A DNA stretch of 64,000 bases from Escherichia coli (lineage in GTDB: Bacteria; Pseudomonadota; Gammaproteobacteria; Enterobacterales; Enterobacteriaceae), in NCBI RefSeq assembly GCF_002854065.1, contig NZ_CP024147.1, one strand, 5' to 3'. This document shows positions 77-35,125 of this stretch, piece after piece. Both the position numbers and the translations under genes were made by a program. Position 1 is the first letter of the stretch. The number at the start of each line of letters is the position of its first letter. The notes beneath the pieces are model-generated. The model was not told the DNA's origin. It saw only the letters and a list, made by a program, of their open reading frames with translations, and did not search any database.

Positions 77-175
77 AGCATCCTCGCTTTTAGACAAGAC
101 CTGCACAGTATACCACCGTTTACTGTGCAGATAATGACCAAAAGCAATATGCGTCACACTTTTCTGGTGACAACG

Positions 176-586
176 TCACAAAATGGCGGTCGTCAATCGT
201 GACGAACAGCACAAACGCCCTTTCTCATCGAAGATTTCAATCTGCCAGACCTGGTGACGCGAACCGAGATGCAACGGTTTGCATACGCCGCGCACCCGCC
301 CTTCTCGTGCCGAGCGGACATGGTTAGCATTGATTTCCAGACCAACCACTTTTTGCTCACCTTCGGTACATAAATAACCGGCAACGGAACCGATACTTTC
401 GGCCAGTACCACGGATGCACCTCCATGTAGCAACCCGAAAAGCTGCTTTGTCCGCGAGTCTACTGGCATTGTCGCTTCAAGGGTGTCATCACCAATATGT
501 TCAAAGCGAATATCCAGTAACCCCACCATGTTTCCTTCACCCATGGCATTCAGTGCTTCCAGGGTGATTTTTCGTTTCCATATCAT
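176..586 (-). CDS. menI: 1,4-dihydroxy-2-naphthoyl-CoA thioesterase (hotdog-fold, PaaI family)
   Basis: 136-aa ORF in track; sequence recognised as YdiI/MenI; synteny. Confidence 0.9.
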   Translation of the reverse strand: MIWKRKITLEALNAMGEGNMVGLLDIRFEHIGDDTLEATMPVDSRTKQLFGLLHGGASVVLAESIGSVAGYLCTEGEQKVVGLEINANHVRSAREGRVRGVCKPLHLGSRHQVWQIEIFDEKGRLCCSSRLTTAIL

Positions 587-3500
587 TTAATAATCTCCAG
601 TAAAGCCTGCACAGGATGGCGTACCCCCGTGCCTTCAACCCGTTTGACCTGACTACGGCAGGAATATCCGGTCGCCAGACAGCGGTTACGCGGCAGTCGC
701 TGCATAGCCTGATGCCAGGATAACTCATAGATCCCGAGCGAATTTTTATGGTTTTTCGCTTCATGTCCGTAAGTCCCTGCCATGCCGCAGCAACCCACGC
801 TGACATTTTCCAGTTTCGCGCCAAAACGGGCAAATATCGCGGCCCATTGTGCTGGCGCACCCGGCAAGGCGGTAACTTCGGTACAGTGACCAAAGAAATA
901 CCATGATTCACCGCTGACTGTAGCCACTGGCTGTGACTCAAGTGCGCTTGCCAGCCATTCATTCGCCAGTAAGACGTTAAACTCGCCACGTTCCTCGCCC
1001 AGTGCCAGTTTATATTCATCGCGATAACAAAGTACCAGCGCCGGATCGACGCCTACCATTGGCATACCCAGCTTCGCCATACGGTTGAGGAAATCCGCCG
1101 TCTTTTTCGCCGTCTTCGCAAAACGATTAAGAAAACCTTTAATATGCTGGGCTTTGCCATTTGGCGAAAATGGCAGTAACACAGGCTGGAAACCTAATTT
1201 TTCGACCAGACGGACAAAATCCGCCACCACTTGCGCATCGTAATAGCTGGTAAAGGGGTCCTGCACCACCAACACCGTGCGCGCTTTCTGCTCTGCATTG
1301 AGAGCTTCAAGCTGTTCCAGCGTCATGTTTGCCGAGCGATGCCCCACCATTTGTTGTTGTAGCGAGGGGACCGACAGCAGCGGCAAATCAACCATGCCGA
1401 TATGTTTTTCCGAGAGTTTGCGCATCAGCGGCTGGTTAATGAAGAAGTTAAAGGTTTTCGGCGCGCGTGCCATCAGCGGTGCGTAGCTCTCGACCGTAGC
1501 GACGAGGTGGTCGCGCAGCGGACGTAAATAACGGGTGTGATAGAGCTGCAGGAAACGAGAGCGAAACTCCGGCACATCAATTTTGATGGGGCACTGGGTC
1601 GAACAAGCTTTACAGGCCAGACAGCCCGACATCGCCTCTTTGACTTCGTGTGAGAAGTCATATTCGCCTTTATTCGCATGCCAGCTATTGCGCGTGCGGG
1701 CAATTAACGTCCGCAAACTGACGCCGGATTCAGGCAGTTCTTGTTCCAGTTTGAGTGGATCAACGCCGCGATCCGCCAACAAACGCAGCCATTCACGCAC
1801 CAGCGTTGCGCGCCCTTTCGGTGAATGAATCCGGTTCTGGGTGATCTTCATCGACGGACACATCGGACTACGGGCATCAAAGTTGAAGCATAAACCGTTG
1901 CCGTTACACTCCATCGCACCGCGCCACTGCTGGCGTACCGCAATGGGGATCTGCCGATCGAATGTACCGCGCTTCACCGCGTCCACTTTCATCATCGGCG
2001 CATCGAGACCTTCTGGCGGGCAAATCTTCCCTGGGTTGAGTCGGTTATGCGGGTCAAATGCCGCTTTCACTTTGCGCAGTTCTGCAAAAAGTTCCTCACC
2101 GAAAAACGCCGGGCTGTATTCAGCGCGAAAACCTTTGCCGTGCTCGCCCCACAACAAACCACCGTATTTCGCAGTCAGCGCCACCACGTCATCAGAAATT
2201 TGCTTCATCAAAATCTCTTGTTGCGGATCGCACATATCCAGTGCCGGACGGACGTGCAACACCCCAGCATCGACATGACCAAACATGCCATAACTTAAGC
2301 CGTGGCTGTCGAGCAGCGCGCGAAATTCAGCAATATAATCGGCCAGATGTTCCGGCGGTACGCAGGTATCCTCAGCAAACGGAATTGGCTTAGCGGCACC
2401 TTTGGCATTGCCAAGCAGACCAACGGCTTTTTTGCGCATTGCATAGATACGTTCAACCCCCGCCAGCTCACGGCACACCTGCCAGCCGATGACACCTGCT
2501 TGATGACTGGCGATCAGCTCATCCAACCGCGCACAGAGTGCATTTACCCGCTCATCAATCAGCGCCTCATCATCACCAGCAAATTCCACAATGTTCAGCC
2601 CGAGCATCTCTTGGTCAGGCACATCGGTAATCAACTCGCTGACGGAATGCCAGACAATATCTTCCCGCGCCAGATTCAGCACTTTTGAGTCCACCGTCTC
2701 TACCGAAAGCGCCCGCGCCTCAACCATAAACGGCGCGTTACGCAGCGCAGAGTCAAAAGAGTCATATTTGACGTTCACCAGACGGCGCACTTTAGGCAAG
2801 CGCGTAATATCCAGCCGCGCTTCGGTAATAAAGGCCAGCGTCCCTTCTGAACCCGTCAGAATGCGCGTCAGGTCGAACTCGGTCATCTCATCGTTAAAGA
2901 CATGACGCAGATCGTAACCGGTAAGAAAGCGGTTAAGTTTGGGGAAGTTGTCGATAATTAACTGGCGTTGCTGACGGCAACGTTGATAAACCGTGTTATA
3001 AATTCGCCCGATTGCGGTATTGGTTTTACCCAGCGTTTCCGCCAGTTCGACGGGTAAAGGTTGCGTATCGAGAATATCGCCCCCCAACAACACCGCGCGT
3101 ACGCCAAGTACGTGATCTGACGTTTTGCCATAGACCAGCGATCCCTGACCGGATGCATCGGTATTGATCATCCCGCCGAGCGTTGCCCGGTTGCTGGTCG
3201 AAAGTTCTGGTGCAAAAAAGTAGCCGAACGGTTTCAGGTACTGATTGAGTTGGTCTTTTATCACCCCGGCCTCAACGCGCACCCAGCCCTCTTCAGGGTT
3301 AATTTCGATGATGCGGTTCATATGGCGGGACATATCAACAATAATCCCCTGGTTGAGCGCCTGACCGTTAGTGCCGGTGCCGCCGCCGCGGGGGGTAAAG
3401 ATCAGCGATGAATAGCGTTCCTGCGCGGCAAGACGGGCGATCAGCGCCACATCTGCGGTTGAACGCGGAAATACCACCGCATCGGGGAGAAGTTGGTAAA

Positions 3501-5325: not shown

Positions 5326-5430
5326 ACGGTTATAAATCAACATATTGATTTATAAGCATGGAAATCCCCTGAGTGAAACAACGAATTGCTGTGTGTAGTC
5401 TTTGCCCATCTCCCACGATGGGCTTTTTTT
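5326..5430 (+). ncRNA. rprA: RprA small regulatory RNA (Hfq-dependent activator of rpoS translation)
   Basis: Sequence ACGGTTATAAATCAACATATTGATTTATAAGCATGGAAATCCCCTGAGTGAAACAACGAATTGCTGTGTGTAGTCTTTGCCCATCTCCCACGATGGGCTTTTTTT matches RprA as I recall it, ending in hairpin plus T8 terminator. Confidence 0.85.
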
Positions 5431-5568
5431 TAACATTTTTCCGCTTCGCTACCTCGCCCCTCACTCTTTCCAATAATGTTGCACAAGATACTGTGACTCT
5501 CTTCAAGCCGTCAGCAGGCTGATAATGTTATTTATATTTTATTGTTTATTTCATGCAGCCATTACACG

Positions 5569-30886: not shown

Positions 30887-30986
30887 GGTATCCGTTCTGC
30901 TGAAGTGTCATGGCGTTGATTTTACGGTGACTCTTCGACAGTGAAAAGAAAAAAGGCCGCAGAGCGGCCTTTTTAGTTAGATCAGA

Positions 30987-31286
30987 TTACTCGTCTTTGG
31001 GCGAAGCGTTTTCGACCCGGCTTTTTAACTTCTGCCCGGGTCTGAAGGTCACCACGCGCCGTGCTGTAATGGGAATATCCTCGCCCGTTTTCGGGTTACG
31101 TCCCGGGCGTTGATTCTTATCACGCAGATCGAAGTTACCAAAACCAGAGAGTTTCACCTGTTCGCCGTTTTCCAGAGCGCGACGGATCTCTTCGAAAAAC
31201 AGTTCAACCAGTTCTTTGGCATCCCGCTTGCTAAGCCCAAGCTTATCAAACAGATATTCTGACATTTCAGCTTTTGTAAGCGCCAT
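30987..31286 (-). CDS. ihfA: integration host factor alpha subunit
   Basis: 99-aa ORF recognised as IHF-alpha. Confidence 0.95.
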
Positions 31287-31290
31287 AGGT

Positions 31291-33681
<2,391 letters not shown>

Positions 33682-33692
33682 CTATTCCTGCC

Positions 33693-34718
<1,026 letters not shown>

Positions 34719-34884
34719 TTAGAGCCTATCCCATCAGGCTATTTTACTTGCCATTTTGGTCCCGGGCAGTGCTCGAAATCCTCACGTACTTAAGTACGCT
34801 CCGGTTTCTCCGCACTGGCCGTATCCAGACTGGCTGCGACAATTACGCCTGATAGACTGGCTTTTTATTTTTCAAAACGCGCAT

Positions 34885-34912
34885 ACAAAAAAAGCCTCCA
34901 CTGGGAGGCTTT
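34885..34912 (-). terminator. pheST attenuator terminator (hairpin agcctcccagtggaggct followed by T7 on minus strand)
   Basis: Read directly between pheM and pheS. Confidence 0.65.
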
Positions 34913-34958
34913 CAGGCGCTGTTTTCCGTTTCTCTTCTCACGCGCTAGCCTCCTGGAT

Positions 34959-35003
34959 TCAGGTGCTAAAGTAAAAAAAGAAGCGGAAAATAGCAGCATT
35001 CAT
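34959..35003 (-). CDS. pheM: pheST operon leader peptide [14 protein letters not shown] (Phe-rich, 14 aa)
   Basis: Read directly on minus strand; 5 Phe codons in 14. Confidence 0.8.
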
Positions 35004-35125
35004 TGCTTGCGTTACCTTTTGGTACTCTTCAAAAGACCTTTATTGAAAAGGCTACGGCGATAAAAGTCAATGTTTTGATGGCGTTGAAACGAAAAGAGGG
35101 AGACTAGCTCCCTCTTTCAACTGGC

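Follow-up and report, generated by a model that had tools for sequence, protein, structure and literature searches.

The pheM leader and ribosome-mediated transcription attenuator of the Escherichia coli pheS-pheT-ihfA operon

Does the interval between rplT and pheS in the window (the whole 64-kb stretch of Escherichia coli DNA analysed here) encode a leader peptide whose translation decides whether transcription continues into pheST, or a plain terminator beside a reading frame that is rich in phenylalanine by chance? On the basis of the raw sequence, the initial annotation had proposed the former at 34885-35003, an extent whose two ends coincide exactly with the pheM ATG and the final base of the Rfam match described below. 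The present analysis identified the element, with a probability of roughly 0.97, as the pheM leader together with the ribosome-mediated transcription attenuator of the E. coli pheS-pheT-ihfA operon, and nothing contradictory to this explanation was encountered, its weak points being confined to the in-silico tests. The attenuator itself is already known, being annotated in RefSeq, modelled in Rfam, and experimentally characterised since 1983-87.

Identity and components of the locus

The Rfam model Phe_leader (RF01859) matched 35009-34885 on the minus strand with 75.0 bits (gathering score 55, E = 6.8e-11), and the alignment covered model positions 1-125 of 125. The 601 nt around the attenuator were 100% identical in many complete E. 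coli chromosomes and had matches in 5425 of 5426 genomes. In one identical genome, RefSeq gives the order thrS, infC, rpmI, rplT, 'Phe leader region', pheM, pheS, pheT, and ihfA, with 'pheST operon leader peptide PheM' as the product name of pheM. In E. coli K-12 MG1655, pheM is annotated as b1715, and this attenuator of pheST-ihfA has the same sequence and the same gene order (thrS-infC-rpmI-rplT-pheM-pheS-pheT-ihfA) as the window. Comparison with K-12 revealed nine differences over 472 aligned nt, all at 34768-34858 downstream of the attenuator, so that these variant positions are confined to the 144-nt repeat treated in the last section and the attenuator has none; the window from 35130 to 34859, comprising the rplT terminator, the promoter, pheM, and the terminator T-run, is identical to K-12.

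Table 1. Coordinates of the features of the pheM-pheST locus in the window, in order of transcription
Feature	Position	Strand	Basis
rplT stop codon	35128-35126	-	sequence
rplT (L20) intrinsic terminator with T-rich tail	35087..35117	-	sequence; context, outside the attenuator
rplT terminator arms, AGAGGGAG / CTCCCTCT	35115-35108 / 35102-35095	-	
pheST 'native' sigma-70 promoter	35041..35070	-	literature position and conservation
-35 TTGACT / -10 TTCAAT(A)	35070-35065 / 35047-35041	-	
Shine-Dalgarno-like AAGGT, 11 nt 5' of the pheM ATG	35014..35018	-	sequence; putative function
pheM leader ORF	34959..35003	-	translation; annotated pheM; core FRFFFYFS(T/A) conserved in 77/78 loci
pheM start codon / stop codon	35003-35001 / 34961-34959	-	
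pheM Phe codons	34988-34986; 34982-34974 (triple run); 34970-34968	-	sequence
Segment 1, 5' strand of the anti-antiterminator (1:2) hairpin	34960..34997	-	MFE structure, pair counts
Segment 2, 3' strand of the 1:2 hairpin	34916..34955	-	MFE structure, pair counts
GGAGGCUAG in segment 2	34953-34945	-	
GGAGGCUAG.GCGU, antiterminator 5' strand	34953-34940	-	
Antiterminator (2:3)	34904..34953	-	nascent-RNA folds with the ribosome at a Phe codon; homologs; pair counts
GGAGGCU in the antiterminator	34953-34947	-	
Intrinsic terminator (3:4)	34887..34913	-	Rfam match, folding, terminator scan
Terminator sequence, GAAAGCCTCC-CAGT-GGAGGCTTTT	34913-34890	-	
Terminator stem arms	34913-34904 / 34899-34890	-	
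Terminator T-run	34893-34887	-	
144-nt imperfect-palindrome repeat in the pheST 5' UTR	34719..34862 (+/- 3 nt)	-	locus comparison; outside the attenuator
pheS, first structural gene under attenuator control	33693..34676	-	ORF list, annotation, K-12 comparison
pheT, after pheS	31291-33678	-	ORF list, annotation
ihfA, after pheT	30987-31286	-	ORF list, annotation

The leader ORF of 14 codons with five Phe codons that had been read from the raw sequence is present as claimed. On the minus strand it reads AAGGTAACGCAAGCA-ATG AAT GCT GCT ATT TTC CGC TTC TTT TTT TAC TTT AGC ACC TGA, that is, 14 codons plus a stop, and Phe accounts for 5 of the 14 codons in the translation (nos. 6, 8, 9, 10, and 12). 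The putative ribosome-binding motif preceding it, AAGG(T), was near-invariant over 74 aligned leaders. As in other leader-peptide attenuators, pheM is thus a short ORF rich in cognate codons and provided with a start codon and a ribosome-binding site.

Two additional ORFs were noted in this region. A GTG preceded by GGAGG-N7 opens a 9-codon ORF (VRRETENSA, then stop) within segment 2, at 34941-34912 on the minus strand and ending at the foot of the terminator; it is probably there by chance, as GTA replaces GTG in many genera and the GGAGG is accounted for by its pairing with CCUCC. On the plus strand, a 72-aa ORF at 34756-34974 overlaps the 144-nt insert, and it is regarded as spurious given that it has no Pfam match and spans a strain-variable sequence. 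For pheS, the true start is the ATG at 34676 (MSHLAELVA), and the program-listed ATG at 34688, which is in frame and further upstream, is not the real start.

Regarding transcription initiation, a -35 hexamer TTGACT is separated by a 17-nt spacer from a -10 element TTCAAT(A). The native pheST promoter of Fayat 1983, as cited in PMC4082710, is TTCAATA located 368 nt upstream of the pheS ATG; counted from the start codon of the window (34676 + 368 = 35044), this position falls inside the TTCAATA heptamer. The arrangement TTGAC(A/T)-17 nt-TTCAAT was conserved in 53 of 79 homologous loci, and a generic promoter scan missed it because T occupies position 2 of the -10 hexamer. Further upstream, the rplT terminator separates the rpmI-rplT unit from the pheM promoter, and a hairpin after the rplT stop codon was kept in nearly all of the 79 homologous loci. 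It was also observed that TTGAC-17-TTCAAT is absent upstream of pheM in some lineages (loci L017, L032, L036, L038, L042, L044, L064-L066, and L079), where the rplT terminator hairpin sits 25-35 nt before the pheM Shine-Dalgarno sequence; in these lineages transcription of the leader would have to rely on rplT read-through or on another promoter.

Mutually exclusive folds and the proposed switch

The GC-rich hairpin followed by seven T that the initial annotation had placed after the ORF is present at 34913-34887. Its stem comprises 10 bp, five of them G-C pairs, closed by the loop CAGU, and the T-run after it contains exactly 7 T; the description as GC-rich holds for the 6-bp core GCCUCC/GGAGGC, and does not hold for the stem base, which is A-U. 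As in an attenuator, this terminator follows the leader ORF and precedes the structural gene, and it appeared in the full-length minimum free energy (MFE) structure of 74 of 74 homologs. It does lie upstream of pheS as stated, but not directly, with about 210 nt between the T-run and the ATG. The corresponding gap measures 66 nt in the GTDB representative of E. coli, and values of 39-66 nt are found in many other genera.

The 131-nt leader region had an MFE of -56.7 kcal/mol, compared with -33.7 +/- 3.2 kcal/mol in dinucleotide shuffles (z = -7.2), and the MFE structure contained a long 1:2 hairpin, an imperfect duplex of about 31 bp. Its 5' strand, segment 1, overlaps pheM codons 3-14 and thereby includes all five Phe codons, while the paired pieces of its 3' strand, segment 2, are CAGG, GCUAG, GUGAGAAGAGAA, CGGAAAA, and AGCGC. 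The 5' part of segment 2, GGAGGCUAG.GCGU, doubles as the 5' strand of an antiterminator composed of the helices GGAGGCU:AGCCUCC (7 bp), AG:CU, and GCGU:GCGC. Since the AGCCUCC paired by GGAGGCU is the 5' arm of the terminator, antiterminator and terminator exclude each other. Moreover, GGAGGC starts 8 nt after the first base of the pheM stop codon.

The initial annotation had suggested folding 34880..35010 for alternative structures. When the complete leader was folded at equilibrium, a 29-nt ribosome mask placed at any codon revealed no switch, the terminator being formed in every mask state. As the terminator forms in every state, which is expected for a kinetic switch, the equilibrium fold is uninformative on the competing models, and it was therefore replaced by folding a nascent transcript that ends before the terminator 3' arm, at modelled ribosome positions. 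Without a ribosome, the nascent RNA was predicted to form the 1:2 hairpin at -39 kcal/mol and to leave the terminator 5' arm unpaired. With the ribosomal A site at Phe6, 8, 9, 10, or 12, GGAGGCUAG.GCGU was predicted to pair with GCGC-CU...AGCCUCC, giving an antiterminator of -17 to -22 kcal/mol that consumes the terminator 5' arm. With the A site on UGA, the modelled footprint covered GGAGGC and the terminator 5' arm was free again. Mutually exclusive stem-loops were thus found in nascent RNA, as the proposed check had anticipated, with the terminator as the only outcome at equilibrium: anti-antiterminator, antiterminator, and terminator are three helices selected by the modelled position of the ribosome, and in these models the switch is visible only under the kinetic assumption.

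As a control, the 46-nt purine-rich linker of the window's sequence was shuffled 500 times. The terminator arm was captured in 286/500 shuffles, and the full switch pattern arose in 111/500, a caveat that applies to the anti-antiterminator with its regulatory codons in the 5' strand as found in the folds. As shuffled sequences often switch, folding of a single sequence is weak evidence, and conservation was relied on instead.

Taken together with the published work, these structures suggest the following course of events. Transcription would initiate at the TTGACT/TTCAATA promoter, and a ribosome would start on the 14-codon pheM ORF with RNA polymerase presumably still in the leader, the timing of coupling and pausing being assumed. 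When Phe-tRNA(Phe) is scarce, the ribosome would stall at one of the five Phe codons and cover segment 1, and the freed segment 2 (GGAGGCUAG..GCGU) could then pair with the nascent terminator 5' arm, so that the antiterminator forms and polymerase reads through into pheST, which would raise the output of phenylalanyl-tRNA synthetase. When Phe-tRNA(Phe) is ample, the ribosome would reach UGA and probably mask GGAGGC, with a footprint placed approximately, or it would leave, whereupon the 31-bp 1:2 hairpin may re-form. In both cases the terminator 5' arm would be free, the 10-bp hairpin and U7 would form, and transcription would stop at about 34887.

What this mechanism senses is charged tRNA-Phe at the ribosome, rather than free phenylalanine as such. 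Both this signal and a decay layer contributed by RNase III are taken from the literature. According to PMC4082710, transcription of pheST from its native promoter 'is subjected to an attenuation control' (Trudel 1984; Springer 1985; Mechulam 1987), and the title of Mechulam 1987, as cited there, speaks of 'tRNA(Phe)-dependent attenuation'. In addition, pheM has been described as a Phe-rich leader with alternative stem-loops (PMC5371410), and a pheM attenuator reporter responds in vivo (PMC3831192). The earlier designation as Phe-dependent transcription attenuation thus stood, on the strength of the switch folds, conservation, K-12 identity, and the literature, and was refined with respect to its signal, from phenylalanine to charged tRNA-Phe.

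The element shares its logic with the trpL and hisL attenuators, namely regulatory codons in a leader, 1:2, 2:3, and 3:4 helices, and a choice among them decided by the position of the ribosome. It differs from them in the amino acid and in the location of the stop codon, only 8 nt before the antiterminator strand; due to this proximity the terminating ribosome would mask that strand directly. With the RF01859 model it shares a mini-ORF rich in Phe, a long hairpin that spans the Phe codons, and the terminator AAAGCCUCC...GGAGGCUUUUUUU. The consensus peptide of the model, ..FFFAFFFT.., reads like the pheL leader of pheA and differs from the ..FRFFFYFST of pheM; the apical hairpin aligned poorly (posterior probabilities 1-5); and pheM controls a tRNA synthetase gene, unlike the pheL-like leader of RF01859, which controls a biosynthetic enzyme. 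As a separate observation, the two E. coli Phe leaders have a nearly identical terminator (AAAGCCUCC...GGAGGCUUUUUUU), and pheM scores well on a pheL-like model; this near-identity could reflect either common ancestry or convergence.

Conservation across Enterobacterales and competing explanations

Homologous loci were sampled by anchoring on PheS and not on the leader. This gave 80 loci, each from a different species, with a range that extends from Escherichia to Yersinia, Dickeya, Erwinia, Pantoea, Hafnia, Edwardsiella, and Lonsdalea. Of the 78 loci that reached far enough upstream, 77 carried a mini-ORF with FRFFFYFS(T/A) at its end (two species had single substitutions), and in the homologous loci the stop codon was separated from the end of the T-run by 69-75 nt. 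The RF01859 threshold was passed by 12 of 12 divergent homologs (60-84 bits); two loci truncated upstream fell below it. Among 74 distinct leaders, nascent-RNA folding predicted capture of the terminator arm with the ribosome at Phe10 or Phe12, and none without a ribosome or at the stop, in 73, and the full four-state pattern in 69. In the Phe10-stalled fold, the partner of the arm lay 8-13 nt past the stop in 51/74 leaders and within 1 nt of that range in 17 more.

Column-wise covariation in a MAFFT alignment was dropped, the terminator 5' arm being out of register in many rows, and it was replaced by pair counts anchored on the coding frame and the invariant motifs. In the 3' strand of helix 1:2, variation was almost exclusively A<->G opposite U (34 U-A/33 U-G/7 C-G at one position; 27/47 and 38/33 at others), and one position of this helix had C-G (25) or U-A (10) with the intermediate C.A (39). 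The antiterminator core was 96-100% pairable, with A-U (43) alternating with G-U (31). Two-sided compensatory changes were rare because the helices are so conserved, being limited to one position of helix 1:2 and to a few scattered instances in the inner helix of the antiterminator. Furthermore, the synonymous sites of the Phe codons were almost invariant across genera, which points to a constraint at the RNA level. The comparative set thus documents a rigid conservation of the pheM switch across Enterobacterales, and it is apparent that a reading of the raw sequence suffices to recover the 14-codon regulatory ORF and its terminator exactly.

These data bear on three other readings of the locus. 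It might be supposed that the hairpin is a plain terminator, or insulation from rplT read-through, and that the Phe-rich ORF beside it is a chance one that is untranslated or unsensed. A strong terminator in every equilibrium fold, the frequency with which shuffled linkers yield a 'switch' too, and the existence of several lineages without a dedicated promoter, where rplT read-through would have to occur, are all in keeping with that idea, but the ORF, the AAGG, the five Phe codons, the position of the stop, and a GGRGGC 8-13 nt past the stop are conserved in 73-77 loci from many genera, the RF01859 leader model matches over its full length, and attenuation is reported in the literature (PMC4082710, PMC5371410, and PMC3831192); a plain terminator is accordingly scarcely credible, and the least probable of the readings considered. 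The peptide itself might alternatively be functional, for instance as a small protein of hydrophobic character or as a nascent peptide that arrests the ribosome, and be conserved by selection on its amino acids, for which the unusual conservation in most of 77 loci, including non-Phe residues and the final residue T/A, could be adduced. Synonymous third positions are conserved as well, however, and the conserved codons are exactly those forming the 5' strand of helix 1:2, both implying a constraint on the RNA, while the pheM literature cited reports no independent function of the peptide, which makes this reading very improbable.

A role of the leader hairpin primarily as an RNase III processing or decay element, setting pheST mRNA stability independently of leader translation, is highly unlikely as the sole function. 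RNase III cuts the pheM attenuator structure in vitro, and the downstream message decays faster in the wild type than in the rnc mutant (PMC5371410); an imperfect duplex of the length of the 1:2 hairpin agrees with such a role, as does the cleavage site determined by RNA-seq, K-12 1799278 (PMC5371410), which maps 8 nt 5' of the pheM ATG, corresponding to about 35011 in the window and to the base of the fold. The same position led us to reject the notion that the published RNase III site lies inside the inserted palindrome. However, PMC5371410 itself treats cleavage as a layer on top of attenuation, and processing leaves the conserved Phe codons, the stop-codon spacing, and the antiterminator unexplained, so that RNase III cleavage is supported as an additional layer of the ribosome-mediated attenuator and not as its sole function.

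A palindromic repeat in the spacer and other features of the window

The spacer between the attenuator and pheS is longer than in the GTDB E. coli representative because of a 144-nt insertion at 34862-34719. The repeat was absent at this site in the E. coli GTDB representative (L002), Salmonella, and Citrobacter amalonaticus in the locus comparison, and the full spacer with the repeat was found in 4781 of 5426 complete E. coli genomes (about 88%), K-12 included. The repeat folds as a single, long and imperfect hairpin (-60.1 kcal/mol, z = -4.9) and belongs to a family whose copy number per genome has a median of 5 and reaches at most 8, further copies of which lie in the intra-operon gaps qseG-qseE and nuoL-nuoM. 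The best matches of the insert were in O157:H7 and O145 strains; together with an espL1-like ORF mentioned below, this makes an E. coli of the EHEC/EPEC lineage the probable source of the window.

Known repeat families were considered for its classification. Against the 127-nt ERIC consensus (PMC2759123), a core of about 40 nt aligned with a score of 29, compared with a shuffle maximum of 24, and the arms of the insert showed no alignment to that consensus. An assignment to ERIC/IRU (RU-1) was thus rejected beyond the 40-nt core in view of the dissimilar arms, and RU-2 and RU-3 were rejected for lack of similarity. The RSA repeats of the K-12 GenBank record are 150/151 bp long and present in six copies (PMC5172473), and the insert, whose size and copy number fit these values, may be 'RSA'. 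Like the insert, both ERIC/IRU (RU-1) and RSA are imperfect palindromes in transcribed intra-operon gaps, with a presence that varies between strains.

Genuine ERIC elements do occur in the same gap elsewhere, either partial or aligning over 113-127 nt with 78-88% identity, indicating that the pheM-pheS spacer has been invaded independently several times; the stretch from the pheM terminator to pheS has recurrently taken up palindromic repeats. The ERIC-bearing gaps were those of Citrobacter and Kluyvera (L007, L009, L011-L014, L016, L023, and L029) and of Yersinia (L064-L066 and L079), and the Citrobacter elements begin 1-2 nt after the terminator T-run. Such invasion of the gap may concern users of the K-12 pheST leader as a reporter. 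All observations on the insert are minor and consistent with the known behaviour of such repeats.

An 'alternate promoter', TCTAAGT, has been proposed about 45 bp upstream of pheS (PMC4082710). In the window, TCTAAGT occupies 34723-34717 on the minus strand, precisely where the 144-nt insert has its right-hand junction, and the empty site of the GTDB E. coli representative has ATTAAGT in its place. We consider it rather unlikely that the repeat is other than neutral; it could alter the stability, processing, or translation of the pheST mRNA, or supply the TCTAAGT promoter, and in that event PheRS expression, or the dynamic range of attenuation, would not be the same in strains with and without the insert.

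Elsewhere in the window, three matches to small RNAs were obtained with Rfam models: RprA as a full-length match at 5326-5433 on the plus strand (118.5 bits, threshold 70), the enterobacterial sRNA STnc540 at 30887-31045 on the minus strand (67.4 bits, threshold 38), and ES036 (CssrF) at 58897-58939 on the plus strand (42.9 bits, threshold 37.6). The STnc540 match overlaps the ihfA 3' end and terminator, which suggests an sRNA derived from a 3' UTR. Moreover, a 632-aa ORF at 38826-40724 on the plus strand lies upstream of thrS and divergent from it, and its length and position equal those of the type III secretion effector gene espL1 in strain 88-3493 (L001), which is identical.
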